From an uncultured Chloroflexia bacterium (GTDB taxonomy: Bacteria; Chloroflexota; Limnocylindria; Limnocylindrales; CSP1-4): a stretch of DNA of 64,000 bases. The DNA lies in NCBI GenBank assembly GCA_963789725.1, contig CAWBLU010000003.1, positions 387,170 to 451,169 on the forward strand, written 5' to 3'. Shown piece by piece: positions 10,631 to 36,841 of the stretch; within the stretch, counting starts at the first letter, position 1; every line of letters begins with the position of its first letter. Both the position numbers and the translations under genes were made by a program. The notes beneath the pieces are model-generated. The model searched no databases. It was not told the DNA's origin and worked only from the letters and a program-made list of their open reading frames with translations.

Positions 10631-10705
10631 GGGCCCGTAGCTCAACGGTAGAGCAAATGACTCTTAATCATTAGGTTCTCGGTTCGAATCCGAGCGGGCT
10701 CACCA
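10631..10705 (+). tRNA. tRNA-Lys (anticodon CTT)
   Basis: Folded by hand into a cloverleaf: 7-bp acceptor stem GGGCCCG/CGGGCUC with one G-U pair, D arm GCTC-AACGGTA-GAGC, anticodon stem AATGA/TCATT with loop CTCTTAA, T arm CTCGG-TTCGAAT-CCGAG, and an encoded CCA end. Confidence 0.85.
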
Positions 10706-18832: not shown

Positions 18833-19758
18833 GTGCCGCCGGCGATTCTACCGACCGCCTGCCGGGCGTTCCCGGGGAATACTTCGGCCGCGCCACTCGG
18901 CGGCTTGAAGGCGCCCATTGCTGGGCGGAGGTTCTGGCCACCGGTGGGCCGCGCGTCGTCAGGTTTGGACTCGCCGGCGGGTCGAACCTGTTCGCCGAGA
19001 CACCGACCGCGAACTGGGATGCCGGCTTCGGCACCTACGAGTTGCTGGGCGGGCACCGGTTGTGGTTTTCCCCTGAGTCGGACGAGTGCAGCGTGCCGGA
19101 TTCGACCGGGCTTACTCTGTCGGAGATGCAGAGCGTGACCGGGCCCGCGGTCATGCTCGTCGGTGCAATCGAGGCCCCGACCGGCCTGCGCAAGACGATC
19201 GAGGTCCGCCTCGATCCCGATTCGGCGGCAATGTCGTTGCACCACGTCCTCACCAACCAGGGTTCGCGTACGTTCGAACTCGCGCCCTGGCCGGTGACCC
19301 AGCTGCGACTCGGCGGCACGGCCGTCGTGCCGTTGCCGCCCGCGACCGAGGAGCCGTCGTCCCGCCCGAACCAGCTGGTAGCCATGTGGCCGTACAGCTC
19401 GTGGTCGGACGAGAGGATCGAGATCGCCGAGCATCGGCTGACCGTCGCCGCCCGCCCGGGCAGGCCCGTGAAGGTCGGTTGCCTGAGTTCGACAGGCGTC
19501 GCCGGCTACTTGCTGGACGGGCTCCTCGTGGTGCTGAAGTTCGACCCGGCTCGTGGTTCCGTTCACTCGGACCTCGGCAGCAATCTCGAGGTCTACTGCG
19601 ACGATCGGACCATCGAGCTCGAGTCCCTCGGGCCGCTGGTGACCCTGGCCCCCGGTGATGCGGTGGCGCACGACGAGCGCTGGGAGATCCTCGAGGTAGG
19701 AGATGGCCTGGACGCAGTGAGCGTTGAAGGGCTGCTGAGGGAGTTCGCACCGGCGTGA
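18829..19758 (+). CDS. hypothetical protein co-transcribed with the GH94 genes
   Basis: Start overlaps the upstream stop (ATGA) and its stop overlaps the next start. No motif I can name with confidence. Confidence 0.5.
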   Translation: MSAAGDSTDRLPGVPGEYFGRATRRLEGAHCWAEVLATGGPRVVRFGLAGGSNLFAETPTANWDAGFGTYELLGGHRLWFSPESDECSVPDSTGLTLSEMQSVTGPAVMLVGAIEAPTGLRKTIEVRLDPDSAAMSLHHVLTNQGSRTFELAPWPVTQLRLGGTAVVPLPPATEEPSSRPNQLVAMWPYSSWSDERIEIAEHRLTVAARPGRPVKVGCLSSTGVAGYLLDGLLVVLKFDPARGSVHSDLGSNLEVYCDDRTIELESLGPLVTLAPGDAVAHDERWEILEVGDGLDAVSVEGLLREFAPA

Positions 19759-22367: not shown

Positions 22368-23216
22368 ATGATGAAATTCGGACTGTCCCTGAGGAATACC
22401 GGCCCCGGATCGAGCGCCGAGGCGATCGAGGCGGGAGCGAAAACGGCCGAACGCCTCGGCTGGGAGACCGTCTGGACGACCGATCACGTTCTGGTGCCGG
22501 GGTCCGCGGCCGGCGAGTACGGGCGCACCTTCGAGGCGATCGAGACCCTGGCCTGGGTAGGGGCAAAGCACCCGCGCCTCAAGCTGGGCACGAGCGTGAT
22601 CGTCGTCCCGCAGCGCAACGCCGTGCTTCTCGCCAAGGAGCTGGCCACGCTCGACGTGCTGAGCGGTGGCCGCCTGATCGCCGGTGTAGGCGTCGGCTGG
22701 AACGAGACCGAGTTCGCGAACCTCGGCCTGGCCGATCGTTTTCACCGTCGCGGCGCATACCTGGACGAAACGATCCGACTGTGGCGCCACCTCTGGTCCG
22801 GTTCGGCCGAGCCGTTCGAGGGCGTGTTCCACGCCTTCAGCGACTTCGTCTTTGGGCCGTTGCCGGTCCGCCGGGATAGCGTTCCGATTCTGGTCGGCGG
22901 CTCGTCGGCCGCGGCGTTGCGGCGCGCCGGGGCCCTGGCAGACGGCTATCACGCCACCCGCGCGGCGCCCGACGAGATGGCTCGCCGTATTCCGGTCGTC
23001 CGGGCGGCCGCACAAGCCGCGGGTCGGCCGGCACCGTCGCTGTCGGTTCGGATGCCCGTCTCGGCGGAGCCGGACGCCATTCTTCGGGACGTTCGGGAGT
23101 ACGAGGCGATGGGCGTCGAGCAGCTGGCGGTCGTCTTCGCCGAGACCGAACCTGAACGCCTGCAATTGGCGATCGAACGGTTCGACGCCGAGGTCGTCCA
23201 GGCTCTGGCCGGTTGA
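22368..23216 (+). CDS. LLM-class (luciferase-like) F420-dependent oxidoreductase
   Basis: MKFGLSL...ERLGWETVWTTDHV N-terminus and overall profile typical of luciferase-like monooxygenase / F420-dependent reductases. Confidence 0.75.
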   Translation: MMKFGLSLRNTGPGSSAEAIEAGAKTAERLGWETVWTTDHVLVPGSAAGEYGRTFEAIETLAWVGAKHPRLKLGTSVIVVPQRNAVLLAKELATLDVLSGGRLIAGVGVGWNETEFANLGLADRFHRRGAYLDETIRLWRHLWSGSAEPFEGVFHAFSDFVFGPLPVRRDSVPILVGGSSAAALRRAGALADGYHATRAAPDEMARRIPVVRAAAQAAGRPAPSLSVRMPVSAEPDAILRDVREYEAMGVEQLAVVFAETEPERLQLAIERFDAEVVQALAG

Positions 23217-23692
23217 GCGACCCGTTTGTGCTGGCCCCGGCCGAGCGGGCCTTCCTGCTGGCGTGCCGGCGCATCGTAATGTGCACGGTCGCGGCCGATG
23301 GTTCGCCTCGCCCGGTGCCCATCTGCTTCGCCGTCGCGGACAGCCCGGCCGTGGAAGCGGAGTGTCTGTACACGCCGCTCGACGACAAACCGAAGCAGGT
23401 CCACGATCCGCGCCTGCTCGCGCGGGTCCGCGACATCGTCGCTCGCCCCGGCGTGATTCTCCTGGCCGATCGCTGGGACGAGGATTGGAGCCGGCTCGGT
23501 TGGTTGCGACTGCTCGGCCGAGCGCTGCTTTTGGAGCCCGGTTCGGGGCAGGCTGGCGGTGCCGAGGAGCACGCCTCGGCGGTAGCAGCTCTTCGCACCC
23601 GCTATCCCCAGTACCACGATCACGACCTGGCCAGTCGGCCGCTGATTCGGGTGGACATCACCTCGGCTCGATCCTGGGGCTCCCTCGTCTAG
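23213..23692 (+). CDS. PPOX-class (pyridoxamine 5'-phosphate oxidase-like) probable F420-dependent enzyme
   Basis: About 159 aa with the split-barrel FMN/F420-binding profile (RIVMCTVAADGSPRPVPICFA...). Start is TTG at 23213 overlapping the LLM stop, or alternatively GTG at 23228. Confidence 0.6.
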   Translation: MSDPFVLAPAERAFLLACRRIVMCTVAADGSPRPVPICFAVADSPAVEAECLYTPLDDKPKQVHDPRLLARVRDIVARPGVILLADRWDEDWSRLGWLRLLGRALLLEPGSGQAGGAEEHASAVAALRTRYPQYHDHDLASRPLIRVDITSARSWGSLV

Positions 23693-23799
23693 GGCGTAGG
23701 GCGTAGGGCGTTGGCGTCCGGGCGTAGGGCGTAGGGCGTAGGGCGTCCGGGCGGTTCGGCGGGCACTCGCCCGGCTCTCCGTCCGGCCGTCGTGCTAAC

Positions 23800-23966
23800 C
23801 TACCGCCAACCTTTGTTGCCGGCTCTGTGAGGCCGGCTTCCGGTCGATCCAGGCCGGGCATGCGGTCCAGAGAGGCCGCGGAGGAGCGAATGTTCGTCTG
23901 CGAGTCAAACCACCGCGCCGGTTCGGCCGGTGGCTTTTTTGTCCGGCCCGGCACTATCGGGGCCGG
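23800..23966 (+). promoter_or_regulatory. PyrR-dependent translation-coupled attenuator (leader) of carA
   Basis: Hairpin GCCGGC-tctgtgag-GCCGGC (23824-23843), then a PyrR box GGUCCAGAGAGGCCGCGGAGGAG (about 23864-23886) that overlaps the Shine-Dalgarno sequence of a leader ORF. Terminator CCACCGcGCC-ggttc-GGCCGGTGG followed by CTTTTTTGT (23910-23942). Confidence 0.7.
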
Positions 23967-23970
23967 ATGA
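23890..23970 (+). CDS. carA leader peptide (26 aa, MFVCESNHRAGSAGGFFVRPGTIGAG)
   Basis: ATG is 7 nt after GGAGGAG. The ORF runs through the terminator and its TGA overlaps the carA ATG (ggATGAtg). Confidence 0.5.
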   Translation: MFVCESNHRAGSAGGFFVRPGTIGAG

Positions 23971-25229
23971 TGCCTTCGGTGTCGCACGCCCTCAAGCAGC
24001 CGCCGTTTCCGCGGCCCAGCTCGGTCGTCGACCCGAGGGTTGGCGACTACGGCCCGGCCCTGCTCGCGCTCGAGGACGGGCGTTTATTCCCGGGCATCGC
24101 CTTCGGTTCGCAGCGCGCCGGCCAGGGCGACCTCGTCGTGAACACGAGCCAGACTGGCTACCAGGAGATCGCCACCGATCCCTCGTATGCGGGCCAGCTC
24201 GTAGTGATGACATACCCGCTGATCGGCAACTACGGCCGGGTCCACTATGACGACCAGTCCGAGAGGCCCTGGCTGCGCGGCCTGATCGTGGCGAACGCAA
24301 CGGCCGCAGTTCTGGACGATGCCCGGCAGCTGGCGACGATGCTGCGTGAGGCCAGCATCCCGGCAATCGCCGGCGTCGACACGCGCGCCCTCGCCCGTCA
24401 CCTCAGGGCCCACGGTAGCCTGCGGGCCATCGTGACCGCGCCGGGCGAGACGGACCCGGAAGAAGCGAGGGCTCGGGCTCGGGCCGTGCCGCGGTGGGAG
24501 GATCAAGATTTTGTGGCCGCGGTTTCGCCCGTCTCTGCTCGAGACGAAGGCGACGCGTCCGAGGGAGGCCCGCTCGTCGCCATCCTCGATTTCGGCCTCA
24601 AGACGAACATCGTGCGCAGCCTTCGCCGGCGCGGCGCCCGGGTGCGAATCCTGCCTCACACCGCGACGGCGGCCGACGCGCTGGCGCCGGAGATCGACGG
24701 CGTGGTCTTTTCGCCAGGTCCGGGCGATCCGGCCAGGCTGGACGGCCCGGTCGCGCTTGCTCGCCAGGTCATAGCCGACGGCCGGCCGCTGCTCGGAATC
24801 TGCCTGGGCCATCAGATCATCGGCCGCGCCGCCGGGGCAGACACTCGCCGGCTTCCGTTCGGCCACCATGCCGCCAACCATCCGGTCAAGGACCTCGAGA
24901 CGGGCCTGGTGCAGGTAACGGCCCAGAACCACGAGGTCACTGTCATCGCCGAGACGCTGCCGGACGCGAGCGGCTTCGTGGTCAGCCAGATCGACCTCAA
25001 CGACGGGTCCGTCGAAGGTCTGCGCCACCGCGCGCTGCCGATAGAAACGGTCCAGTACCACCCCGAGGGCGGCCCCGGCCCATTGGATGCGCTTGCGGTC
25101 TTCGACCGTTTCGTGACGGCCGCCCTGGCCCACCACGGCGGAGGAGAGCCGGTGCCGACGGTCGGCGCCGTCGAGCCACTCCACCTGGACACGGCGGAGC
25201 TGGCACGGCGCCTTCAGGGGATGAGCTAG
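23967..25229 (+). CDS. carA: carbamoyl-phosphate synthase small (glutaminase) subunit
   Basis: N-terminal domain ALLALEDGRLF..GxxxGEVVFNTSxTGYQE-like segment. C-terminal class I glutamine amidotransferase with LGICLGHQ (catalytic Cys) and the Y/H of the triad. Confidence 0.9.
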   Translation: MMPSVSHALKQPPFPRPSSVVDPRVGDYGPALLALEDGRLFPGIAFGSQRAGQGDLVVNTSQTGYQEIATDPSYAGQLVVMTYPLIGNYGRVHYDDQSERPWLRGLIVANATAAVLDDARQLATMLREASIPAIAGVDTRALARHLRAHGSLRAIVTAPGETDPEEARARARAVPRWEDQDFVAAVSPVSARDEGDASEGGPLVAILDFGLKTNIVRSLRRRGARVRILPHTATAADALAPEIDGVVFSPGPGDPARLDGPVALARQVIADGRPLLGICLGHQIIGRAAGADTRRLPFGHHAANHPVKDLETGLVQVTAQNHEVTVIAETLPDASGFVVSQIDLNDGSVEGLRHRALPIETVQYHPEGGPGPLDALAVFDRFVTAALAHHGGGEPVPTVGAVEPLHLDTAELARRLQGMS

Positions 25230-25295
25230 AGTCGGACACGCCCCGGAGCCGATGGGGAAGTTGACGAGCATGCCCACGGCCAGGATGGGAGAGCG

Positions 25296-25720
25296 ATGCG
25301 ACAGGTCGACAGCCTTGGCCACGCGGACGCGGAGCGGGCGATCGAGGCCGTTCAATCGGAGTTGTTGCGCCGCGACAAGACGGCGGTGGTCGCCGTGGCC
25401 GACGCTCAGGGCGAGCTCGTCGGCCTGCTGCGTCTGGACGGTGCACCCTTGCCCTCGATCACCATCGCGACGAACAAGGCCTGACCGCGGCCCGCGAGCG
25501 AAAGCCGACACTGGAGATCGGCCAGGCGGCCCTTGATCCGGAGCGCGTCTTCGACATCGCCTACTACGGTGATCTCCGGTACGTCGGGTGGGGCGGGGGA
25601 GTGCCGGTCCTGGTGCGAGGTCAGGTCGTTGGAGCGGTGGCTGTGAGCGGGCTCACACAAGAGGAGGACGCGGAGCTGGCCGGACTCGGCGCGGGCGCGG
25701 TCGTCGCGGGATTGGGTTGA
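25296..25720 (+). pseudogene. GlcG/HbpS-like DUF336 protein, apparently disrupted by a 1-nt frameshift
   Basis: Frame A (25296-25484) encodes ...VAVADAQGELVGLLRLDGAPLPSITIATNKA*. The downstream portion is in another frame, from about 25481 to 25720: LTAARERKPTLEIGQAAL...GGGVPVLVRGQVVGAVAVSGLTQEEDAELA. Together these make a typical roughly 135-aa DUF336 protein, with the shift at about 25478-25485. Confidence 0.55.
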
Positions 25721-25897
25721 CCTGAGCGGTCGGGCCTCGCCCGAACCTTTTCGACCAGGAACCCCGCGCTGGTCTCCCCCGGCCGGTATTCGGTGGGCTT
25801 CCGCGGCGCGAGACGGTACGTCGAGGGCCCACCCCAGACCGGCCTCAAGATCCAGAATGCGGTCTAGCCGATAACTCGATTACTCGCCGGTGAAGCG

Positions 25898-27226
25898 GTG
25901 AAGCTACTCCGAGCGCTCCTCATCGCTCTTCTTGCCGCGGCTGTCACGGCCTGCGACCTCTCCCCAACGCCCCTGCCGGCGTCCTCGCCGACCGGTCGCG
26001 TCACGCCGGCAAGGCCAACAGCGGGCGCCACCCCTATCGCCGCCCCTGCGACCAGCGTCGCGGTTACACCCACGGACCATCTCATAGTGGTGCGAGAGGC
26101 AGGCGGTGTCGGAGAGTTCTACGACCGCGCCACGGGCGCGAAGTTTGTGCCGCGCGGCATGAACTACATCCGCCTGGCGAACCAGACCAAGGCCGACGGG
26201 TCGGTCACGTTCGGCCATTCCGTGTTCGATCCCGGCCGGTACGACCAGCCCCGCGTGGGCGGCGCCCTGGAGAAGATTCACGCCGACGGTTACAACACCG
26301 TCCGCGTGTTCCTCAGTCCGGACACGATGGGCACGGCCGACGGCGGTCTCTCGCCCGAGTACATGAAGAACGTCGCCGATTTCCTGCGTCTGGCGAGCGC
26401 TAACGCCATCTACGTGATGTTCACCCTCGACTGGATCCCCGGCGGCAAGTACGGCGCGATCTTGAACACGGATTGCTGTTCGGCCTTCGCCCTGATGAAT
26501 GCCAACTTCCTGCCTCCTGCTGGCCTCGAGGCGAATCAGGTCTTTTACCGGGACTTCATTCACGGATTGCTGGACCTCGGAGCGCCCACGGAGTACGTAT
26601 TCTCGTACGAATTGAGAAACGAGATGTTCTACGACTCGGACTTGCCGCCGCTCTCGTTCAAGTCGGGCGTCGTGACGACGGCGAATGGCAAGTCGTACGA
26701 CATGGCCAAGGCGTCGGACAAGGATCTGATGGTGCGCGAAAACCTCGTGTACTGGATCGACCATATGCGCGCCTCGATCCAGGAGGTCGATCCGACTGCG
26801 CTCGTGAGCGTCGGCTTCTTCCAGCCGCAACAGCCGAACCCGACCCGAGAGGAGGACCCGCGTCTCGCGATGACCGAGCCGGCCATCTGGCAGTCCACGG
26901 CCGACTTCGTCGACCTGCACGCGTACCCGGGGTCCGGCTTGACCCTCAAGCAGTATGTCGAGAACTTCGGCATCAACGGCATGAAGCAGAAGCCGATTGT
27001 CATGGGCGAATTCGGCGGCGAGATCTCCCGGTTCCCGTCCGTCTCGGTGGCGGCGCAGACATTCGCGGCCTGGCAGGCGGAATCCTGCTCCTACGGCTTC
27101 GACGGCTGGTTGTTCTGGTCCTGGGATCTGAGCGAGCAACCCGACTTCTTCAACGCCTTGATGTATCAGGGCGCGATCAACGGCGTGCTCGCCCCCGTCG
27201 CGCGGCCGGATCCCTGCTCGGTTTAA
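25898..27226 (+). CDS. secreted lipoprotein, TIM-barrel glycoside hydrolase-like (GH5-like)
   Basis: GTG start; signal peptide with lipobox LLAAAVTAC, a Pro/Thr/Ala linker, then a domain with RGMNYIRL...GYNTVRVFL...DWIPGG pattern resembling GH5-type (beta/alpha)8 hydrolases. Family assignment is tentative. Confidence 0.45.
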   Translation: MKLLRALLIALLAAAVTACDLSPTPLPASSPTGRVTPARPTAGATPIAAPATSVAVTPTDHLIVVREAGGVGEFYDRATGAKFVPRGMNYIRLANQTKADGSVTFGHSVFDPGRYDQPRVGGALEKIHADGYNTVRVFLSPDTMGTADGGLSPEYMKNVADFLRLASANAIYVMFTLDWIPGGKYGAILNTDCCSAFALMNANFLPPAGLEANQVFYRDFIHGLLDLGAPTEYVFSYELRNEMFYDSDLPPLSFKSGVVTTANGKSYDMAKASDKDLMVRENLVYWIDHMRASIQEVDPTALVSVGFFQPQQPNPTREEDPRLAMTEPAIWQSTADFVDLHAYPGSGLTLKQYVENFGINGMKQKPIVMGEFGGEISRFPSVSVAAQTFAAWQAESCSYGFDGWLFWSWDLSEQPDFFNALMYQGAINGVLAPVARPDPCSV

Positions 27227-27376
27227 GGACGGCGAGTTGCGCCGGCCGGGACGACGGGGTCGACAGGCCGACCCTATGCCGGTCCTGGCGCCGATACCGC
27301 GGCCCACCTCGAGAGACGTAGATTGGCGTCATCGCCGGTCGGGGTAGGAAACAGGGCCGGCGACGGAGGCAACTCG

Positions 27377-27610
27377 ATGGACCCGATCACCGCCAGGATG
27401 CTCAGCCAGGCTCACATTTCCGAACTCCACGCCGAAGGCGCCGCCAACCGCATGGCGGCCGCGGCCCACAAGAAGAGCCGGGTCGAGTCGCCGTGTCGGA
27501 TCGAGGCGGTCGGTCGAAAGCCCCGAGTGGAGCTTCCGCAGGTCGACTGCTCCTGGTTCGAGCGACTCTGGGCGACGATCCGCCGCGCTATCCCTGCGCG
27601 CGCCGCCTGA
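27377..27610 (+). CDS. hypothetical small protein
   Basis: ATG preceded by GGAGGC; 77 aa; no recognisable domain. Confidence 0.3.
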   Translation: MDPITARMLSQAHISELHAEGAANRMAAAAHKKSRVESPCRIEAVGRKPRVELPQVDCSWFERLWATIRRAIPARAA

Positions 27611-27630
27611 CCTCGCCCGGGCGAAGCCGC

Positions 27631-27828
27631 TCAGCGCCGCACTGGGCGGCACATTTGCCCACTGGCCCCGCGCCGCGCGACGTTTAGCGAAAGCGACTCG
27701 CTGTGGTCGCGCTCGATCAGCGACATCGTCCCCTGAGCAACCCCGGCTATGCCCGCCAGCTCAAGCTGGCTCATCCCGCGCCGCTTTCGAACGGCCCTGA
27801 TGACAGCTCCGAACTGGACATCGTTCAC
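27631..27828 (-). CDS. XRE-family (Cro/CI-type HTH) transcriptional regulator
   Basis: IRAVRKRRGMSQLELAGIAGVAQGTMSLIERDH is a canonical HTH_XRE. Divergent from the membrane-protein gene. Confidence 0.7.
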   Translation of the reverse strand: MNDVQFGAVIRAVRKRRGMSQLELAGIAGVAQGTMSLIERDHSESLSLNVARRGASGQMCRPVRR

Positions 27829-28078
27829 GCGGCGATTGTCAACGAGGCCACTTCACGACCGCTTATCTGCGAAGCTATGTCCGCCAGTTCTGTTGGATGC
27901 GCGAAGCCGGCTGGAGGCGGGAGCCCGTGGTGATGACGGTCAAGAGTCGTGACCTCGCCGCGGCCGCATCGAACCTGGGGGCGGCGCCACCCGCGACGCC
28001 ATCCTCGGCCGCATCGAACCTGGGCGCGGCACCACCCTCGGCACCACCCGCGGCAGCGGCGACCGATGTGGGCCCCCG

Positions 28079-28585
28079 ATGAAACTGCACAGCGGCCTGA
28101 CGGTCAACGGCCGATCGTACTCCAAGGGCGACGAGATCCCGGGGTTCTTCGTCTACCCCTTCTTCCTCGTGCACATGCTGGCGTTCGGCGTCTCGGGCTT
28201 CGTCCTGGCCTACAGCGGCGCGCCAGCGCTGTTTCTGTTCATGCACGGCGGCATCGCGATCTTCGTCTACACCGTCTTCTATCTGGCCATCTTCGGCCTG
28301 GACGAAGTCAAGTGGATGTTCATCAACGCCGGACTGGGGATCTTCGGGATCCTCAGCCAGATCGACTGGTTGCTCTCCCTGTTCGGCCGCCGGGTCGCCG
28401 ACTACCCGGTCTACGTGCACATCATTCCGTTCCTCTACTTCGTGCTCTACACGTTCCTGATCCGTCACGCCCTGCTCGATCTGCTGGGCGCCCGAGACGA
28501 CGACGCGAAGAGGACCCGGGTGCAGTACGGCTACATCGGCGCGTCGGTGGCCTTCTACGTGTTCGCGCACGTGCTCGAGGGCTGA
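28079..28585 (+). CDS. hypothetical integral membrane protein (5 predicted TM helices)
   Basis: 168 aa with five strongly hydrophobic 20-25 aa segments. Start overlaps the stop of a short upstream repeat-containing ORF (ATGA). Confidence 0.55.
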   Translation: MKLHSGLTVNGRSYSKGDEIPGFFVYPFFLVHMLAFGVSGFVLAYSGAPALFLFMHGGIAIFVYTVFYLAIFGLDEVKWMFINAGLGIFGILSQIDWLLSLFGRRVADYPVYVHIIPFLYFVLYTFLIRHALLDLLGARDDDAKRTRVQYGYIGASVAFYVFAHVLEG

Positions 28586-28641
28586 CGGCGAGCGTCGCGC
28601 GGACCCCGCTCGTCTGGCCGCGCGTGCGGCCTTTCGCTTCG

Positions 28642-29670
28642 TCAGCCGTCCCAGCGGACCCGGACGTGCTGCCGGATACCGGGCAGCGGCATCGACGCGG
28701 CCTCCGCCTCCACAGCCGCTCGTTCCGCGGTCGAGAGCCGGCGCCACGACTCGATCGTGACGTTGGTTTGCGCGCGTCGCCACGTCCCGGCAATCTCGCC
28801 GCTCACAAGGACGGCCCCGGGCCAGACTCGGGGCGTCCAGAGCGCGCGACGATTGTCGGGGTCAGGGACCAGCAATTCCCGATCGGCTCCTTGCAGTAGG
28901 AAGTAGGCGTCCCCGCTCGGGAGAAGCCGAGCGAGCGCCGCCGATCCGCCGGGGGCACGGAACGCCGGCTCGTCTTCGGCCAGGATCCATGCGTCGCCGG
29001 CCGGCGTTCGGACCGGCGTCAGCGATTCGCCGAGCGCGGCGAACGCGGCCCGGCCGGCGGCGGCTCTCGGCCTGATCCCGGCCCACTCGGCAAATGCGGC
29101 GGGCGTGGCCGGCCCGAAGATGTGCAGGTAGCGGCGCGCAAGCTCGAGGCGTGCCTGGCGCGGGTCGACGCCCGGTGGCGGCACGGTCCAGATGGCCGGC
29201 TGCCGCGCCCCATCCCACCGGATCAGCACCGTGCCGGTCGGCGCGGCATACCTCAGGCTGTTCGGGTGCACGCCGAGCGCGTGCCCCACTTCGCCGTAGT
29301 TCATCCTTCGACCGTCGAGGAAGCCGTGTAGCCGGAGGGCGAGATCGTCCGCCCGGCGTCGCAATTCGCCGCCTTCGGCGAGCCGCCCGAGCGAGAAGAT
29401 CGCGAGGTCAACCTCGGCGACGACGTAAACGCTCCACCGAGGTCCCCAAACCTGCACGAGCGACGCGTCCTCCCAGGTTTCCGGTCTGGTCCCCTGAACG
29501 CGTGCATGGATCGACAGGACCGCCGCGCGAGGCACGCTGTCCTGCAGCCCCGCCCAGGCCGCCCGTCTGAGCGACACAGGGCCGGGCGGCAACCGCTCGT
29601 CGAGACCACCGACCGATCGTCGGTACCTGAGGATCTGCTCGCGCGTCAACTCGAGCCGGGCCGAGGCCAT
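28642..29670 (-). CDS. winged-helix DUF1006 protein, YcaQ/AlkZ-like (putative DNA glycosylase family)
   Basis: N-terminus LTREQILRYRRSVGGL...AAVLSIHARV and C-terminus LLPSGDAYFLL...RVWPGAVLVSGEIAGTWRR resemble the YcaQ/AlkZ HTH_42 family. The Q-phi-(Q/D) catalytic motif is not clearly conserved (LQD). Confidence 0.5.
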   Translation of the reverse strand: MASARLELTREQILRYRRSVGGLDERLPPGPVSLRRAAWAGLQDSVPRAAVLSIHARVQGTRPETWEDASLVQVWGPRWSVYVVAEVDLAIFSLGRLAEGGELRRRADDLALRLHGFLDGRRMNYGEVGHALGVHPNSLRYAAPTGTVLIRWDGARQPAIWTVPPPGVDPRQARLELARRYLHIFGPATPAAFAEWAGIRPRAAAGRAAFAALGESLTPVRTPAGDAWILAEDEPAFRAPGGSAALARLLPSGDAYFLLQGADRELLVPDPDNRRALWTPRVWPGAVLVSGEIAGTWRRAQTNVTIESWRRLSTAERAAVEAEAASMPLPGIRQHVRVRWDG

Positions 29671-29855
29671 TCGATGTCATCTCCGCGGAGAGCGGGTTCG
29701 CGCGACCACTGTAGCGGGCCACATCAAGCCGCTGCGAGTCGGCCCAGGCGCCGCGCGGGGACTAGCGCTCATGAACAGCGGCACGATCAGGGCCCGAGCA
29801 GCTCCTGGCTAGAGTAATGTGCTACCGTGTGCTACATGAAGACTGCGGCGCGAAC

Positions 29856-30158
29856 ATGAGCGAAGGGGAGGCACCCGCGCGTGTGGGGGTGCGCGAGCTT
29901 CGGCAGAACCTCTCCGTGTATCTGCGGCGCGTGGAGAGAGGGGAGACTCTCGACGTGACCGAACACGGTCGCCTGGTGGCGCGCCTTGCGCCGGCGCCGG
30001 CTCCGGAGGTGAGTATCCTGGACAGGTTGATCGCGGAAGGTCGAGCCACGCCGGCCAGCCGTTCGATCGGCGACCTTCCGGAACCGATCAAACTGGCGCC
30101 GGGCTCTGAGAGCGTCTCGGATGTGCTCCGCCGGATGCGCGAGGAAGAACGCTGGTGA
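29856..30158 (+). CDS. Phd/YefM-family type II antitoxin
   Basis: VGVRELRQNLSVYLRRVERGETLDVTEHGRLVARLAP is a Phd/YefM signature. Stop overlaps the vapC start. Confidence 0.7.
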   Translation: MSEGEAPARVGVRELRQNLSVYLRRVERGETLDVTEHGRLVARLAPAPAPEVSILDRLIAEGRATPASRSIGDLPEPIKLAPGSESVSDVLRRMREEERW

Positions 30159-30556
30159 GCCAGACCTATGTCGACTCGTCGGCCCTCGTGAAGTTGATCG
30201 TCGATGAGCCAGAAACCGATGCGCTGCGGCGGCATATCGCCTCGGCCGGGCCGCTTGCGTCCAGCATTCTCGCAACCGTCGAGGTCTCGCGGGCGGTCGC
30301 TCGGGTCGCGCCTGCATCGATGGCCGAGGTCGCCGCCGTGCTCCAGGCGCTGAACGTTATGGCCTTCGACGCCCGAATCGCCGCCCGCGCAGCCGCGCTG
30401 GGTCCGGCCAGCCTGCGTGCCCTCGATGCCATCCACCTGGCGACGGCTCTCGAGTTGCGGGACGAGCTGACTGCCTTCATCTCCTACGATGAGCGCCTGC
30501 TGGCAGCAGCCCGCGACCTGGGCCTGCCCGTGGTCGCGCCGAGCGGCTACTTGTGA
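30155..30556 (+). CDS. vapC: PIN-domain toxin VapC
   Basis: YVDSSALVKLIVDE ... DAIHLATA ... ISYDERL is a PIN fold with the acidic residues in place. Confidence 0.75.
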   Translation: MSQTYVDSSALVKLIVDEPETDALRRHIASAGPLASSILATVEVSRAVARVAPASMAEVAAVLQALNVMAFDARIAARAAALGPASLRALDAIHLATALELRDELTAFISYDERLLAAARDLGLPVVAPSGYL

Positions 30557-30792
30557 AGCGGACTCTGAAGGCTGACGAGTTCGACACGAGGTTCGACACG
30601 GGGCAGGACGTCACAGGCGACCTCGACCGGTCTGCTGCCCGCCGCCCCCTTCAGAAGGCCAGGCGCGTCAACGTGGACTTCCCGTCATGGATGGTCGAGT
30701 CGCTGGACCGCGAGGCGAAGCACCTCGGCGTCACCCGCCAGTCGGTCATCAAGATGTGGATCGCGGAGCGGCTGGAGAAGCGGGCGTCGTAG
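30553..30792 (+). CDS. ribbon-helix-helix CopG/BrnA-like antitoxin-family protein (orphan)
   Basis: GTG start overlaps the vapC stop. [15 protein letters not shown]...[38 protein letters not shown] matches the BrnA/CopG-antitoxin architecture. No BrnT-like toxin is adjacent. Confidence 0.55.
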
Positions 30793-31281
30793 GTAATGGG
30801 ACCAGGCGCTGGCATCGAACGTTGTCCGAGGTGAGTGAGCTACGAGTACACCCGCGAGCCGCGGCGTCTTCGCGCCAGCGCCGACGGCGCGGGCTCATTC
30901 TGAGTGAAACGTGGCGCTGAGAATGAGCCATCCCGCTCGCTGCCGTAGAAATCGCCCGAGGCAGACAGCAACTCTTGGAGGCACTTCGCCGAGCCCCCGG
31001 GCAAAGGACGTTTCGGCCGAGCTTCTCAGCCAACTCCCTGTCGCCGTGGACGACCCGGAGCCCGCGCCGAACCTTCGTCTCGGACGGGTATCCCTCTCCT
31101 CCGCTTACCGGTCGGCTCGAAAGGAGGGGAGGTTCTCGAATTCGCTGTGGCGCATCATGTCGGGCCCTGGACCGCTCAGCAGCCAGCGTTTCATTCCGGC
31201 CGATCATCCGGTTTCGCCCGTGGCCCGGGAGTTATGCTCAACGGCAAGTTGTTGGCCAGCGACGTCGTGGGGGTGGCGTGA

Positions 31282-32301
31282 ATGGACCCTGTGTATCAAT
31301 GGAAGGCCATTGAGAGCTCCTTCAGTTCCGGCCTAGTTCTTGGCAACGGAAGTTCCATTGCTTTCGACCGGAGGTTCGCTTACGGCTCTCTCAAGGGACT
31401 CGCCGTAGAAGAGGGCCTCATCACTGCCGACGTGGACAAGGTCTTTCGCCACCTCGACTCCGATGACTTCGAATTAGTGATGCGAATGCTCTGGCACGCC
31501 AGCCAAATCAACCAGGCACTCGAAGTCGAGGACCCAAGGACGTCGGCAGCCTACTCCTCGGTCCGAGATGCTCTGATCGCGGTGGTACAGGCTGTACACG
31601 TACCGTATGGGGCGGTCTCTGATCGCCTTCCCTTGGCTGCTGACTTCATGTCGCGCTTCTCCACCGTCGTCTCCCTCAGCTACGACCTCCTGGTCTACTG
31701 GGCCATCCTTTCGGCGAATGACGAACGGGCAAATCGCTTCAAGGATTGCTTCATTAGGGGGCAATTCAATCAAGACTGGCAGTGGCTTCGGCAACCCTAC
31801 CGCTCGAATTGGGCGAGCACTCTCGTGTTCTATCCGCATGGCAACCTCGCCCTGGCGGCTACGCTTAGCGGGGCTGAGTTCAAGATCCAAGTCGACGGAG
31901 GCGCTCTCCTGGAGACCGTTTTCGATCGTTGGCGCGAAGATGCGACCCCTTTGTTCGTAAGCGAGGGCACGTCCGAGCAGAAGCGCGCGGCGATCCGTCG
32001 AAGCCCGTATCTGTCCGCCGTCTACGACGAAGTCCTACCGGAGCTGGGAGAGAGCGTAGTGACTCTGGGATGGTCAATGGGCGAGAACGACGACCATCTT
32101 CTCGAAGCGATCTGTCGAAGAGGAACCCGGAGATTCGCCGTGGCGGTCGATCCCAACTCAGACCGCCTCGCTGAGAGCCAAGCCAATGTGCGCCGCCGGA
32201 TCAGCGGTCTGCTTCGTGAAGAATTGGGCGAAGTCGTCTTCTATGATTGGACCAGCCCAGGTTGTTGGATCAATCTCGATCCCGCGGAGGTCGACAGATG
32301 A
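31282..32301 (+). CDS. SIR2-like (SIR2_2/DUF4917-type) domain protein, candidate NAD-dependent defence effector
   Basis: 339 aa with LVLGNGSSIAF (GxGxS NAD-binding motif), SLSYDLLVYW (NYD-type motif) and FYPHGNL (HG motif), in the order and spacing seen in SIR2-like domains such as ThsA. Gene GC is about 57% against a roughly 70% background. Confidence 0.55.
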   Translation: MDPVYQWKAIESSFSSGLVLGNGSSIAFDRRFAYGSLKGLAVEEGLITADVDKVFRHLDSDDFELVMRMLWHASQINQALEVEDPRTSAAYSSVRDALIAVVQAVHVPYGAVSDRLPLAADFMSRFSTVVSLSYDLLVYWAILSANDERANRFKDCFIRGQFNQDWQWLRQPYRSNWASTLVFYPHGNLALAATLSGAEFKIQVDGGALLETVFDRWREDATPLFVSEGTSEQKRAAIRRSPYLSAVYDEVLPELGESVVTLGWSMGENDDHLLEAICRRGTRRFAVAVDPNSDRLAESQANVRRRISGLLREELGEVVFYDWTSPGCWINLDPAEVDR

Positions 32302-32384
32302 TCCCCTGGTGTTCTCGCCTGGCATGGGACGCCGCTTTCTAGCGATTAGGGCCATCTTCTGCGTCGGGTGCTGCTATCCTTCCC

Positions 32385-32534
32385 CCAGCCCTTGAGGCCG
32401 GGTCTGTGAGCCCGGCGGAAGTCAAAGAGACGGCTTGCCGGCGCTTTGACTCGCGGTCCTGAGAGGCCGGGGAGGAGAACGATGCGCCCGTGTAAGCTGA
32501 ACCACCGCGCCCGCGAGGCCGGTGGCTTTTTTGT
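32385..32534 (+). promoter_or_regulatory. PyrR-dependent translation-coupled attenuator (leader) of carB
   Basis: Hairpin GCCGGG-tctgtgag-CCCGGC (same loop as the carA leader, compensatory stem changes). PyrR box GGUCCUGAGAGGCCGGGGAGGAG at 32456-32478. Terminator CCACCGcGCC-cgcga-GGCCGGTGG then CTTTTTTGT (32502-32534), with a stem identical to the carA leader. Confidence 0.7.
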
Positions 32535-32538
32535 ATGA
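32482..32538 (+). CDS. carB leader peptide (18 aa, MRPCKLNHRAREAGGFFV)
   Basis: ATG is 5 nt after GGAGGAG. The TGA overlaps the carB ATG (gtATGAcg). Shares ...NHRA..AGGFFV with the carA leader peptide because both span the same terminator. Confidence 0.5.
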   Translation: MRPCKLNHRAREAGGFFV

Positions 32539-35500
32539 CGGATGAGCCCTTGACACTTCCTGCAACTCAGCCCCTCGTGGCGCCGCGAGCGGAGCGGCGC
32601 AAGCCTGAGAGCGCGCTCATCATCGGTTCGGGGCCGGTCGTGATCGGGCAGGCGGCCGAGTTCGACTACGCCGGCACGCAGGCCTGCCGCGCCCTCCGCG
32701 CCGAGGGCGTCCGAACCATCCTGGTCAACTCGAACCCCGCGACGATCATGACCGACGCGGAGGTGGCCGACGCCGTCTACCTCGAGCCGCTCACCGTCGA
32801 GGCCATCGAGCAGGTCATCGCCAGAGAGCGGCCCGAGGGGCTCCTCGCCGGCCTTGGCGGCCAGACCGGCCTCAACCTGGCCGTGGCCTTGGCCAAGGCC
32901 GGCGTCCTCGACAAGTACAACGTCCGGCTCATCGGAACGCCGCTCGAGGCGATCGAGATGGCCGAGGACCGCGAGCTGTTCCGTGACCTGCTCGACCGGA
33001 TCGGCCAGCCGTACGCGCCCAGCTGCATCGTCGAGGGCGAGACGGATGAGGCGCGCGACAAAGCGGCCAAAGAGGCCCTGGCCGAGATCGGCCTCCCAGC
33101 GATCATCCGGCCGGCGTTTACGCTCGGGGGCACCGGGGGCGGCATCGTCGAGACGGAGGCGGCGTACTGGGAGCGCACCCGCACCGGCCTTCGGCTGAGC
33201 CCGATCAACCAGGTCATGATCGAGCGCTGCCTGGTGGGCTGGCAGGAGATCGAATACGAGGTCATGCGCGACGCGGACGACACCTGCATCGCCGTCTGCT
33301 CGATGGAGAACGTCGACCCGCTGGGCGTCCACACCGGCGACTCGATCGTGGTCGCGCCGGTCCAGACGCTGCCGGACCCGGTCCACCAGCGCCTCCGCAG
33401 TGCCGCGCTCTCGATCATCCGGGCGCTCGGCGTGGAGGGCGGCTGCAACGTCCAGTTCGCGCTTTCGCCGGACTACACCGAATACGCGGTCATCGAGGTC
33501 AACCCGCGCGTCAGCCGATCCTCCGCGCTGGCGAGCAAGGCGACCGGCTACCCGATCGCGCGTGTCGCGGCGCAGATTGCCGCAGGGCGGCGCCTGGCAG
33601 AAATCCCGAACGTAGTGACCGGCACGACGGTCGCGGCTTTCGAACCGGCGCTGGACTACGTCGTCGTCAAGCTGCCCCGCTTCCCGTTCGACAAGTTCCC
33701 CACGGCCGACCGATCGCTGGGCAGCCAGATGAAGGCGACCGGCGAAGTGATGGCGATCGACCGAACGTTTGGGTCGGCGCTGAACAAGGCCTTGCGCGCG
33801 CTCGAACAGGCCGGCGCCGGCTTCCTGGCCGAGAACGCCGCCTGGCGGGCGACGCTCGACTACCTGATGGAGCCCGCGGTAGCCCAGCCGATGGTGACGG
33901 TCGACGGCGGCGGGCTGCTGTGCGAGGCCCGGGCCCATGCCGAACGAGCCGCCTATCCGATCGTCCTCAAGCGGTTCCTGGCCCCATCCGACTCGCGGCT
34001 GTGGCGGATCCTGGCACTGCTGCGGCGCGGCATGCCGGCCGAGCGGATCCGCGGCGTGACCGGCATCTCGGCCTGGTTCCTGCAGGAGTTCGAGCGAGCG
34101 ATCACGCTCGAGCGCGACGTTCGCCGGATGGGCGCGCGCATGACCGATCCACGGGACGAGGAGACGGCCGAACTCCTGGCGACGGTGAAGCGGGCCGGCT
34201 TCGGGGATCGCGAGCTGGCGCAGATGGCCGGCGTGCCGGCCGAGTCGATCCGGCTGGCCCGGATGGAGCTGGGCCTCGTGCCCGGCTACGCGATGGTGGA
34301 CACGTGCGCGGCCGAGTTCGCCGCGGAGACGCCCTACTTCTACGCCACGTACGCCGCGGCCGGCTCGGAGCCGGAACTGCCGCCCGTGGAGCGGCCAGCG
34401 GCGCTGGTGATCGGCAGCGGCCCGGTGCGGATCGGGCAGGGGATCGAGTTCGACTATTGCGCCGTCCAGGCCGCCGCCGAGCTGCGCGCCCAGGGCTGGC
34501 AGGCCGTGATGATCAACTCCAACCCCGAGACGGTCTCGACCGACTTCGACGCCTCGTCACGCCTCTACTTCGAGCCGCTTGATCCCGAAAGCGTCCGTTC
34601 GGTCGTGGAAGCCGAGTCGCCGGCTGGCGCCGACGGCGTTGCCGCGCCGCTGCTCGGCGCATTCGTCCAGTTCGGCGGCCAGACGCCCCTCAACCTGGCC
34701 GAGCCGCTCGCGGCCGCCGGTATCCCGCTCCTGGGCGCGAACCTCGAGACGATCGACCAGGCCGAGGACCGCATCCGCTTCGCGAACCTGGTCGAGTCGC
34801 TCGGCATTCCCCAGCCCGAAGGCGGCATGGCCCGATCGATAGAGGAGGCGCTGGCGCTGGCCGACCAGATCGGCTACCCGGTGATCGTTCGGCCCTCGTT
34901 CGTCATCGGCGGCCTGGCCATCGACTTCAGCTACTCGCCGTCCGATCTCGTAAACCAGCTGGAGCGCGCGACCGTCGTCGATCCCGACCGGCCGGTCCGG
35001 ATCGACCGCTATCTGGAAGGTGTCGAGGTGGACATCGATGCCGTGGCCGACGGCGAGACGGTCCTCATTCCCGGCCTGCTCGAACACGTCGAACGGGCCG
35101 GCGTTCATTCCGGCGACTCGGTCGGGATGTTTCCGCCGCAGACCGTGTCCGTGGCGGACCAGGAGTTGATCGTCGCCGCCATGGACCGCATCGTGCGTGC
35201 CCTCGACGTCCACGGCCTGGTCAACGCCCAGTTCATCGTCCGAGAAGACGGCGTCTACTTGATCGAGGTGAACCCGCGGGCCAGCCGAACCGTGCCGTTC
35301 ATGAGCAAAGTGACCGGCGTGCCGATGGTCAAGCTGGCCGTCCGGATCGCCCTGGGCGAGAAGCTGGCGGACATGGGGTGGGGGAACGGGCTGCTGGCGC
35401 CGCCTCCCCTGGTCGCGGTCAAGGCCCCGGCATTCTCCACGGCCAAGCTGCGCGGCGTGGATCCGTCCGTGGGGCCGGGGATGCAGTCGACCGGCGAGGT

Positions 35501-36035
35501 CATCGGCATCCACCAGGACCCGCGCGTGGCCCTCGCCAAAGCGATGCAGGGCGCCGCGCTGATCCCGCCGCGGCCGGGTGCCGGCGGCGCGCTGGCGCTC
35601 ATCTCCGTCGCGGAACGAGACCACGGGGAGTTGCCGCGAGTGGCCGCCGCCCTGTCTCGCGCCGGCTACCGGTTCGCGGCAACGTCCGGCACCGCGGCCG
35701 AGCTGGCCGCTCTCGGCTTCGCGGCCCAGGTCGTGGCCAAGGTCGGCGAGAAGCCGGTCGACGGCGAGATCCCGATCCTCGACCTGATCGCCGGCGGCAC
35801 CGTCCGGCTCGTGGTAAACACGCCGGCCCCCAAGTCCGGCCCGGTCCGCGACGCCGCGGAGATCCGGCTCGCCGCCACGGCGGAAGGCATCCTGTGCCTG
35901 ACCGCGATTGAGACCGCCGTCGCCGCGGCCGAGGCCCTGGACCCGGACCTGCGGTCGCGCCTGGCCGAAGTTCGTTCCCTGGGCGATTGGGTGCCGGACC
36001 CGGGTGTGCCGCGGCCCGCGCTGAAGCTGAGCTAG
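32535..36035 (+). CDS. carB: carbamoyl-phosphate synthase large subunit
   Basis: Two ATP-grasp halves (ALIIGSGPVVIGQAAEFDYAGTQA...; ALVIGSGPVRIGQGIEFDYCAVQA...), an oligomerisation domain and a C-terminal MGS-like domain. Confidence 0.92.
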   Translation: MTDEPLTLPATQPLVAPRAERRKPESALIIGSGPVVIGQAAEFDYAGTQACRALRAEGVRTILVNSNPATIMTDAEVADAVYLEPLTVEAIEQVIARERPEGLLAGLGGQTGLNLAVALAKAGVLDKYNVRLIGTPLEAIEMAEDRELFRDLLDRIGQPYAPSCIVEGETDEARDKAAKEALAEIGLPAIIRPAFTLGGTGGGIVETEAAYWERTRTGLRLSPINQVMIERCLVGWQEIEYEVMRDADDTCIAVCSMENVDPLGVHTGDSIVVAPVQTLPDPVHQRLRSAALSIIRALGVEGGCNVQFALSPDYTEYAVIEVNPRVSRSSALASKATGYPIARVAAQIAAGRRLAEIPNVVTGTTVAAFEPALDYVVVKLPRFPFDKFPTADRSLGSQMKATGEVMAIDRTFGSALNKALRALEQAGAGFLAENAAWRATLDYLMEPAVAQPMVTVDGGGLLCEARAHAERAAYPIVLKRFLAPSDSRLWRILALLRRGMPAERIRGVTGISAWFLQEFERAITLERDVRRMGARMTDPRDEETAELLATVKRAGFGDRELAQMAGVPAESIRLARMELGLVPGYAMVDTCAAEFAAETPYFYATYAAAGSEPELPPVERPAALVIGSGPVRIGQGIEFDYCAVQAAAELRAQGWQAVMINSNPETVSTDFDASSRLYFEPLDPESVRSVVEAESPAGADGVAAPLLGAFVQFGGQTPLNLAEPLAAAGIPLLGANLETIDQAEDRIRFANLVESLGIPQPEGGMARSIEEALALADQIGYPVIVRPSFVIGGLAIDFSYSPSDLVNQLERATVVDPDRPVRIDRYLEGVEVDIDAVADGETVLIPGLLEHVERAGVHSGDSVGMFPPQTVSVADQELIVAAMDRIVRALDVHGLVNAQFIVREDGVYLIEVNPRASRTVPFMSKVTGVPMVKLAVRIALGEKLADMGWGNGLLAPPPLVAVKAPAFSTAKLRGVDPSVGPGMQSTGEVIGIHQDPRVALAKAMQGAALIPPRPGAGGALALISVAERDHGELPRVAAALSRAGYRFAATSGTAAELAALGFAAQVVAKVGEKPVDGEIPILDLIAGGTVRLVVNTPAPKSGPVRDAAEIRLAATAEGILCLTAIETAVAAAEALDPDLRSRLAEVRSLGDWVPDPGVPRPALKLS

Positions 36036-36175: not shown

Positions 36176-36841
36176 ATGCTCTTCCCTCGACCAGGCCGCG
36201 CCGCGCCGGCCTCGATCGCACTCCTGGCTCTGCTGGTCGGCGGGTGTGTCGGCGGTCCGGCCACGTCCGTTCCTGCCGGTTCCGCCACTCAGGCCGCGCC
36301 GGCAGACGCGCCGGGCAGTCCCGCGACCGGGTCGGCCTCGGCAGTGGCCGGCGGGTCGGCCACGGCACCTGCCGACGGGTCGGCCTCGGCCGGCGCTCCG
36401 GACTGGTTCGACTTCGAACTCGTGGACGTCGTCACCGGCGAGGCCTTCACCATCAACGACTTCGCGGGCAAGGTGGTGCTCGTCGAAACCATGGCCCAGT
36501 GGTGCCCGACCTGCCGGTCGCAACAGGACGAGGTCGCGAAGCTGCACGGGCTGCTGGGCGCGTCGAGCGACCTCGTCTCGGTCAGCATCGACATCGACCT
36601 CAACGAGGATGCCCCGACACTCAAGGTGTACGCCGCGAAGCAGGGCTACGACTGGCGCATGGCCGTGGCGACAAAGCCGTTGGCTCACGCCCTCGACAGT
36701 GAGTACGGGACGCAGTACCTGAACCCGCCTTCGGCCCCGATGCTGTTCGTGGACCGGAATGGGACCGTCCACACGCTTCGGTTCGGAGTCAAGTCGGCCG
36801 AGGACCTGAGGGCGACCCTGGCTCCATTCCTGGGTTTCTGA
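36176..36841 (+). CDS. TlpA/ResA-like thiol-disulfide oxidoreductase lipoprotein
   Basis: Lipobox LLVGGC, an Ala/Ser/Gly linker, then a thioredoxin fold with WCPTC. Confidence 0.75.
   Translation: MLFPRPGRAAPASIALLALLVGGCVGGPATSVPAGSATQAAPADAPGSPATGSASAVAGGSATAPADGSASAGAPDWFDFELVDVVTGEAFTINDFAGKVVLVETMAQWCPTCRSQQDEVAKLHGLLGASSDLVSVSIDIDLNEDAPTLKVYAAKQGYDWRMAVATKPLAHALDSEYGTQYLNPPSAPMLFVDRNGTVHTLRFGVKSAEDLRATLAPFLGF

Follow-up and report, generated by a model that had tools for sequence, protein, structure and literature searches.

In the stretch of DNA analysed here, 64,000 nucleotides (nt) of contig CAWBLU010000003.1 from an uncultured Chloroflexia bacterium (hereafter the window, with a GC content of about 70%), the genes carA and carB, which encode the small and the large subunit of carbamoyl-phosphate synthase, lie far apart. 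The gap of roughly 7.3 kb that the original prediction had placed between the end of carA at 25229 and the start of carB at 32535 is confirmed and measures 7,305 bp. The carA product reaches 367 bits with TIGR01368 against a cut-off of 307, and the carB product contains the domains CPSase_L_D1, D2 and D3 together with MGS. Listing of the open reading frames (ORFs) combined with family searches places ten cargo genes between them, among which are all the genes named earlier, including a frameshifted DUF336 gene and a Phd-VapC-BrnA series (Table 1). In addition, both car genes are preceded by a copy of the same leader, putatively of PyrR type, and this duplicated leader, which brackets the split, had been overlooked. 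We consider it probable that the interval is an accessory-gene hotspot specific to one clade, which originated when an ancestrally coupled carAB pair was split.

Table 1. Features of the carA-carB interval and its leaders, in positions of the window.
Feature	Position	Strand	Basis or remark
carA leader	23792-23940	+	covariance model R1, 123 bits
carA, carbamoyl-phosphate synthase small subunit	23967-25229	+	TIGR01368
DUF336/HbpS-like gene, frameshifted	25296-25720	+	PF03928
Glycoside hydrolase family 5 (GH5; cellulase-like) lipoprotein, lipobox VTAC	25898-27226	+	PF00150, 32.4 bits against a gathering threshold of 23.5
orf95, small ORF of 95 amino acids (aa), function not assigned	27323-27610	+	common to L001 and L004
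XRE-type helix-turn-helix regulator	27631-27828	-	family searches
Small multi-helix membrane protein	28079-28585	+	common to L006; 62-nt remnant in L001
AlkZ/YcaQ-like DNA glycosylase	28642-29670	-	family search; six genomes and remnants in two more
Phd/YefM-family antitoxin	29817-30158	+	TIGR01552, 25.9 bits against 20.8
PIN-domain (VapC-type) toxin	30155-30556	+	PF01850, 7e-14
BrnA-family antitoxin-like gene	30553-30792	+	NF047399, 119 bits against 60
Element X, SEC-C-like remnant	30931-31166	-	conserved block, frameshifted in all copies
DUF4917 / PDC-S21 stand-alone SIR2-fold protein	31282-32301	+	PF16263, PADLOC, fold search
carB leader, paralogous to that of carA, with an additional 37-nt hairpin	32371-32532	+	covariance model R1, 124 bits
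carB, carbamoyl-phosphate synthase large subunit	32535-36035	+	large-chain domains; clade-specific N-terminal extension

The comparison of synteny that had been suggested for this interval was carried out on 80 carA loci with 10-kb flanks, taken from species-representative genomes of the same class and labelled L001 and so on. These are metagenome-assembled genomes (MAGs) of 'Candidatus (Ca.) Limnocylindria' and Chloroflexota, except for one record titled 'Ca. Eisenbacteria' (L072), and the proteins of the window were mapped onto all of them. The best relative is 95% identical in its CarA protein; a carA identity of 85-95% delimits the clade of the window, and one of 73-78% the more distant relatives that serve as outgroups. 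All 80 loci contain carA, carB is present in each of the 71 loci whose contig reaches far enough, and the members of the clade are collinear over the wider neighbourhood. In about 55 more distant genomes the two genes overlap or lie at most about 530 nt apart: the carB start falls on, or a few bases from, the carA stop, typically as a GTGA (also ATGA) overlap, and only a minority of the junctions extend up to about 530 nt. The clade of the window is arranged differently, with carA and carB separated by 1.07-9.3 kb in 12 of the 13 genomes for which both genes were captured; L008 is the only member that keeps the ancestral overlapping junction. Nowhere among the relatives did we see the same gene content and order together with a uniform composition.

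The content of the interval changes from genome to genome. Genes were called in the 12 complete intervals and clustered into 49 protein families, 36 of which are singletons, and no family occurs in more than 5 of the 12 genomes. The mean Jaccard index of pairwise content is 0.049, nothing is common to the two members of 37 of the 66 genome pairs, and no two intervals are alike, each carrying between 1 and 12 protein genes. Across the clade the cargo includes toxin-antitoxin (TA) modules (MazF twice, DUF6364-PIN_3 three times, Phd-ParE twice, Phd-VapC three times, and TacA), regulators and assorted enzymes, as well as an IS4/5 transposase in L003. These figures, together with the 12 split loci, support the original prediction of a variable hotspot as opposed to a conserved operon. 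Of the cargo genes, 60 lie on the plus and 13 on the minus strand, and thus 82% run along carA and carB, compared with 24 and 16 genes outside the interval (Fisher p = 0.013). Such co-orientation would also be expected of a conserved functional supra-operon, in which the cargo is co-regulated with carAB and needed for carbamoyl-phosphate metabolism. That reading is hardly credible, given the patchy distribution of the families, their functions, which are unrelated to pyrimidine or arginine synthesis, and the lack of any cargo in L008 and all outgroups; the synteny comparison refutes it. The strand bias is weak evidence for selection against transcription that would collide with carA read-through or with the carB leader, with which it fits.

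The leader upstream of carB was found by alignment, as a conserved element of about 130-170 nt that is paralogous to the DNA upstream of carA. When the loci are scanned with a covariance model (R1) built from 19 copies, each of the 80 shows one leader ahead of carA. The window and all 11 split relatives for which the carB start is captured have another full-length copy in front of carB (124-150 bits), and the unsplit L008 has no such second copy. Most outgroups within 'Ca. Limnocylindria' have a single leader, upstream of carA, and two of them with gaps of 165-300 nt (L047 and L049) show a weaker, leader-only second copy. In L011, the second leader precedes a 142-aa ORF (18458-19040) without a Pfam match, which is inserted between the leader and carB.

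Both copies are built in the same order: a -10-like GTGCTA(A/T)CCT (GTGCTAACCT in the carA leader), an anti-Shine-Dalgarno (anti-SD) sequence CCUU, hairpin 1 (GGCCGGUCCUGUGAGGCCGG), hairpin 2 with the PyrR-type loop (GGTCCAGAGAGGCC at 23864 before carA, GGTCCTGAGAGGCC at 32455 before carB), a Shine-Dalgarno (SD) sequence (GGAGGAG) and a leader ORF. This ORF of 18 codons (M..C..NHRA..AGGFFV) passes through a GC-rich intrinsic terminator with a T6 tail, for which the terminator-like site in the carA leader is 23916-23932. It extends over 23890-23970 before carA and over 32482-32538 (MRPCKLNHRAREAGGFFV) before carB, with a TGA that overlaps the ATG of the following gene in both cases; the ORF is conserved, and its TGA overlaps an ATG or GTG of carA or carB in 14 of the 19 copies. 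In an alignment of 94 leader sequences, fitted to the model and thereby favouring the structure, 97.9% of the cells are paired, and compensatory changes are seen at 8 pairs, compared with 19-55% pairing in controls with slid partners. The leaders of the outgroups keep the hairpins and the coupled leader ORF, and several of them lack the T-run terminator.

The duplication has left a trace in the protein as well. The leader copy before carB runs for about 21 nt, or the first ~7 codons, into the carA coding sequence, and the carB N-termini of the clade (VRQAPLP, VRQQPLP, VREPPLP) copy the carA N-terminus VKQPPFP. In a tree of the leaders the carA and carB copies are intermixed, and L007 has the same 37-nt insert in both of its leaders, which points to gene conversion between them. 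The bodies of carA and carB in the window are closest to those of L001 throughout, and the carB leader together with the carB N-terminus is of the L021/L007 type; the locus thus appears to be a mosaic of parts with different affinity.

A metagenome-assembled source makes it necessary to weigh an assembly or binning artefact, in which carA and carB would in truth be adjacent and foreign sequence mis-joined between them. We give this next to no credence. The same split and the same carB leader recur in twelve independently assembled relatives, and a 1.89-Mb contig on record encodes a DUF4917 protein of exactly this sequence. Furthermore, the window agrees at 100% identity with an independent Logan contig (L081) from 30735 to 32416, which covers the 3' end of the BrnA-like gene, element X, the DUF4917 gene and the start of the carB leader, and this identity argues against an artefact there. 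The exact carA sequence found no match on record in an exact-sequence look-up. In two relatives the tblastn matches of carB are split into two frames (L007 at ~15140, L017 at ~16640); these frameshifts are probably assembly errors.

The assignment of the leader to the PyrR type is based on its loop motif, its terminator and its gene context. The loop GGTCC(A/T)GAGAGGCC has exact matches at both window positions, as well as in 27 of the 80 loci, and is presented by a hairpin that conforms to the conserved PyrR loop (A/G)UCCAGAGAGG(C/U), with its helix pairs kept in 100% of the 94 sequences. An intrinsic terminator, consisting of a GC-rich stem and T6, stands directly before carA and before carB, and four of its helix pairs show compensatory changes. 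We propose GGUCCAGAGAGGCC as the putative PyrR-binding bases of both leader RNAs. No antiterminator is evident in minimum-free-energy or consensus folds. A closing helix between the anti-SD and SD sequences encloses the tandem hairpins, and the leader ORF crosses the terminator; these features suggest a translation-coupled variant. PyrR also ranks first by bit score among the sub-threshold Rfam matches in each of the two stretches searched, with E of about 1-2.

Some results qualify this reading of the leader. Formal membership in the Rfam family PyrR (RF00515) fails, with 20.5 bits for the window and 19.5 for L001 set against a gathering score of 54, and at gathering thresholds Rfam returns one match only, a tRNA. 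No pyrR was found in the window or in the 80 loci by tblastn with a hand-entered B. subtilis PyrR query. A simple scan of the leaders found no sigma-70 promoter consensus, which is to be expected in an organism with 70% GC. The leader that we read as PyrR-type is conserved across 'Ca. Limnocylindria', has a high GC content and is missed by Rfam at the gathering threshold.

The original prediction had also pointed to a GC anomaly. In a profile of GC, GC content at third codon positions (GC3) and codon usage, for which a gene caller was trained on the window and 37 window genes served as background, the DUF4917 gene is the sole outlier, with a GC of 0.58 and a GC3 of 0.684 compared with 0.849 +/- 0.033 (z = -5.0). 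The anomaly thus holds for this gene and not for the other cargo, the GC3 of which is normal; most of the cargo is native in composition, which had escaped the earlier view. The GH5 and membrane-protein genes do have a lower total GC, and their normal GC3 (0.86 and 0.93) assigns this to amino-acid composition. The low-GC DUF4917 gene is the newest arrival in the interval. Genes of defence type and low GC occupy the carB-proximal position in other genomes as well, namely an AriA/GajA-like ABC ATPase in L004 (0.59) and a ThsB-like TIR protein in L012 (0.60), and several carB-proximal genes have a GC3 of 0.68-0.75 against 0.85 in the core.

The label 'SIR2-like' given earlier to the DUF4917 product is a fair one. 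The protein matches PF16263 with 269.7 bits against a threshold of 28 (5e-80) and corresponds to the PADLOC single-gene candidate PDC-S21 (PDLC04961; 4.4e-99). Its AlphaFold model has a pLDDT of 93.3, and the best fold match is the SIR2 subunit of the SIR2-HerA anti-phage complexes (Foldseek E = 4e-9, template-modelling score ~0.5), with further matches to DSR2 and Sir2Tm; at E <= 0.001 there are 32 PDB matches, all of them SIR2-type chains (SIR2-HerA entries, PsSIR2) or KomBC/KomC entries. A comparison with the sequences in the PDB gave no match, neither for the protein alone nor as a profile. Among 34 homologues, GNG.S, D135 and H186 do not vary, which would be compatible with an active site, and we regard the protein, as modelled, as a candidate anti-phage NADase. 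It shares with the defence SIR2s (SIR2-HerA/Nezha, ThsA, DSR2) a confidently predicted SIR2 fold, in line with the PDC-S21 match, and differs from them in that it stands alone, with no HerA, TIR or sensor partner adjoining. The one characterised DUF4917 protein, SliP of C. jejuni, is reported to be sirtuin-like and a secreted deacetylase, not a defence NADase (PMC10421069), and resembles the window protein in family and differs from its proposed role in that reported activity.

Outside its own genome, the best homologue of the DUF4917 protein is 82% identical (L082) and the next 66%, and those that are named come from unrelated phyla, as expected for a gene that moves horizontally. On L082 (2278-4439), a scaffold from a wood metagenome, the homologue is cut by a Mu-like transposase (rve and Mu-transpos_C) with an AAA_22 ATPase. 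This Mu-like transposon, the transposase in the interval of L003, the TA-rich and defence-like content and the one low-GC gene could all be reconciled with a single mobile element, whether integrative island, degraded prophage or transposon, that inserted once in this genome. We nevertheless find such an origin very improbable. The ten cargo genes of the window include no integrase, recombinase or transposase, no tRNA stands beside the insert (the nearest are at 10631 and 37829), and the search for flanking direct or inverted repeats returned only chance-level short matches. Only one gene is compositionally foreign, and the interval is made of blocks with differing histories, in which DUF336 and AlkZ are found across the clade at a divergence like that of the core (70-80% nucleotide identity) and others are unique.

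DUF336, found in 8 genomes, and AlkZ, found in 6 and as remnants in 2 more, have diverged to a core-like extent (70-82% nucleotide identity) and keep their relative order; together with element X, the SEC-C remnant, they are, as judged from their sequences, old residents of the interval, whose distribution across the clade the original prediction had missed. The window copy of DUF336 carries a 1-nt deletion near 25482, where it has T and the intact homologue in L021 has TT, and the repaired protein matches PF03928 at 2e-28; intact homologues are present in L002, L003, L006, L007, L009 and L021. Element X is a non-coding block of 235 nt that is 83-88% identical to blocks in L004 (15189-15393), L009 (9168-9405) and L021 (8742-8976) and is also found on L082. 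Translated from the minus strand, it reads as the C-terminal end of a protein with a SEC-C motif (GRNDLCPCGSG..FK.CC), and every copy has the identical frameshift. A hairpin with a 10-bp stem at 31093-31132 was considered as a structured RNA or recombination site and provisionally rejected, given that L009 differs by two substitutions that are not compensatory and that the fold is no better than those of shuffled sequences (z = -0.4); the element is better explained as what is left of a decayed coding sequence. The distance from element X to the carB leader is about 100-220 nt in L021 and L009. In the window and in L004 a low-GC gene of defence type occupies the space between the two, which marks this gap as a preferred insertion slot. 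An apparent duplication of the right end of element X on L082 was not used as evidence, since this scaffold includes an N gap.

Decay is frequent in the interval. The membrane-protein gene is reduced to a remnant in L001, AlkZ to remnants of 75-85 nt in L009 and L010 and to a frameshifted copy in L015, and with the lesion in DUF336, the frameshift of the SEC-C remnant in four genomes and the conserved order of DUF336 and AlkZ, one might think of differential loss from one large ancestral insert, that is, of a decaying region and not of an active hotspot. This is unlikely in our estimation. The 36 singleton families would demand an ancestral interval several times larger than any observed, and both the low GC3 of several carB-proximal genes and the relationships of the DUF4917 protein, with no homologue outside its genome above 66% save the one at 82%, speak against it.

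Among the remaining cargo of the window, the GH5 lipoprotein is a singleton without a homologue in the other intervals examined, and the same holds for the XRE regulator. Two tandem repeats of 45 nt (27958-28047; 84% identity) lie in the intergenic region between this regulator and the divergent membrane-protein gene and may be an operator pair. The Phd and PIN genes have the arrangement of a type II TA module, with the small antitoxin gene upstream of and overlapping the toxin gene, and the same pair is present in L004 and L012. A 4-nt overlap links each junction of the Phd, PIN and BrnA-like genes (30155-30158 for Phd and PIN). The interval contains no BrnT toxin, and the gene that precedes and overlaps BrnA is the PIN toxin. 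A BrnA-like gene is likewise joined by a 4-nt overlap, and without BrnT, to the 3' end of a second, unrelated module, so that it follows Phd-PIN in the window and DUF6364-PIN_3 in L002 (19979-20284), and it may form a three-gene PIN module with them.

The junction between carA and carB has been opened elsewhere too. In several of the more distant genomes (L027, L057, L066, L076, L078 and L079, at ~11.15-11.70 kb in the 21-kb loci) it holds a compact gene of about 165-170 aa, P-loop kinase-like by weak matches to AAA_18, AAA_33 and SKI only, with overlapping stops and starts; L048 retains a remnant. This gene is a separate, older invasion of the junction, and other outgroups have short non-coding inserts between carA and carB. 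The junction has been invaded repeatedly in this class. Around it, a gene of the redoxin/thioredoxin fold (36176-36841), situated between carB and the sigma-factor gene, has no counterpart in the 80 loci, and a PNPOx-like gene (23213-23692) upstream of the carA leader is common only to L013 and L016, from which it follows that the carAB flanks also accept small insertions. The stretch that leads from the PNPOx stop to the carA leader contains a run of about 7 copies of the unit TAGGGCG with one interruption (23690-23745), at a position where other loci (e.g., L019 and L018) have different short GC-rich repeats.

Some points weigh against the picture of one hotspot with one history. All comparison genomes are MAGs, and several of the intervals contain a frameshifted carB or end on short contigs; the genes of the relatives were called with a purpose-made codon-usage caller, and some of these calls may be wrong. 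In neighbour-joining trees, L008 is nested in the clade by carA and basal by carB with 29% support, and owing to this conflicting and weakly supported position a single origin of the split, although likely, is not proven. Smaller variable points exist nearby, ahead of the carA leader, in the gap from carB to the sigma-factor gene and around a tRNA-Ser, so that the interval is the largest and not the sole fluid spot. Finally, the order of events, with leader duplication first and cargo later, is one that we infer.

We propose that duplication of the leader would have provided carB with its own promoter and PyrR-type attenuator. PyrR bound to UMP or UTP would stabilise the tandem hairpins and the anti-SD/SD helix, which would leave the leader ORF untranslated and allow the terminator to form; when pyrimidines are scarce and PyrR is absent from the leader, ribosomes could translate through the terminator and start anew at the overlapping start codon. 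Both genes would then be pyrimidine-regulated without co-transcription or translational coupling, and DNA inserted between them would no longer harm the expression of carB. The two flanks, essential and conserved, could act as anchors for homologous recombination, and the cargo might turn over by exchange between relatives, by illegitimate insertion (in particular immediately ahead of the carB leader), by insertion-sequence or Mu-like transposition, and by deletion and decay. We tentatively suggest, at somewhat less than an even chance, that duplication of the complete leader 'licensed' the junction within the operon as a hotspot of recombination and insertion, and that the directly repeated leaders still exchange by gene conversion.

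Accessory and defence hotspots flanked by core genes are well known, such as the defence-island hotspots of E. coli and the 'core defence hotspots' of Pseudomonas aeruginosa. The interval resembles them in that conserved core genes bracket a content which differs between close relatives, in its TA and anti-phage-type cargo, and in that no integrase is needed, turnover presumably proceeding by recombination in the flanks. It differs in that its flanks encode both subunits of a single enzyme, which are translationally coupled across the wider class, in its duplicated cis-regulatory leader and in its mixed cargo, which comprises a glycoside hydrolase, an HbpS-like protein and a DNA glycosylase. 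In Neisseria, carA and carB are reportedly separated by a large intergenic segment that varies by strain and species and is largely repetitive and non-coding. The two cases agree in the separation by a variable segment, and differ in the 1-12 protein genes and the paralogous PyrR-type leader before carB described here.

PyrR control can take several forms, including a leader-peptide-coupled one proposed for Thermus and translational repression in mycobacteria. In B. subtilis, PyrR controls the pyr genes by attenuation, and multiple PyrR attenuators are found within one pyr cluster (PMC4347634). Our leaders share with these the UCCAGAGAGG hairpin upstream of pyrimidine genes, followed by an intrinsic terminator, and the presence of repeated copies. 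They depart from them in the RF00515 score (20 against 54 bits), in the two tandem hairpins within an anti-SD/SD pairing, in the 18-codon leader ORF that leads across the terminator onto the start codon, and in that no antiterminator was found in the folds.

Altogether, variable hotspots flanked by core genes and multiple PyrR elements per pyr cluster are already known; what is unusual here is a hotspot inside a formerly coupled two-subunit operon, the duplication of a complete leader, and a seemingly translation-coupled leader of high GC that Rfam misses. To our knowledge, the opening of a two-subunit operon into a hotspot under the same control has rarely been documented. The PyrR-type leader could be modelled and sought across Chloroflexota, and the locus catalogues TA modules and candidate defence genes, among them the stand-alone DUF4917 SIR2-fold protein, in 'Ca. 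Limnocylindria', an uncultured lineage that is abundant in soil and peat. It offers a concrete and datable route from a coupled enzyme operon to an accessory and defence hotspot in which metabolic control is kept. If the proposed role of the leader is true, operon-internal hotspots could arise whenever a downstream gene gains an autonomous copy of the leader of its own operon.

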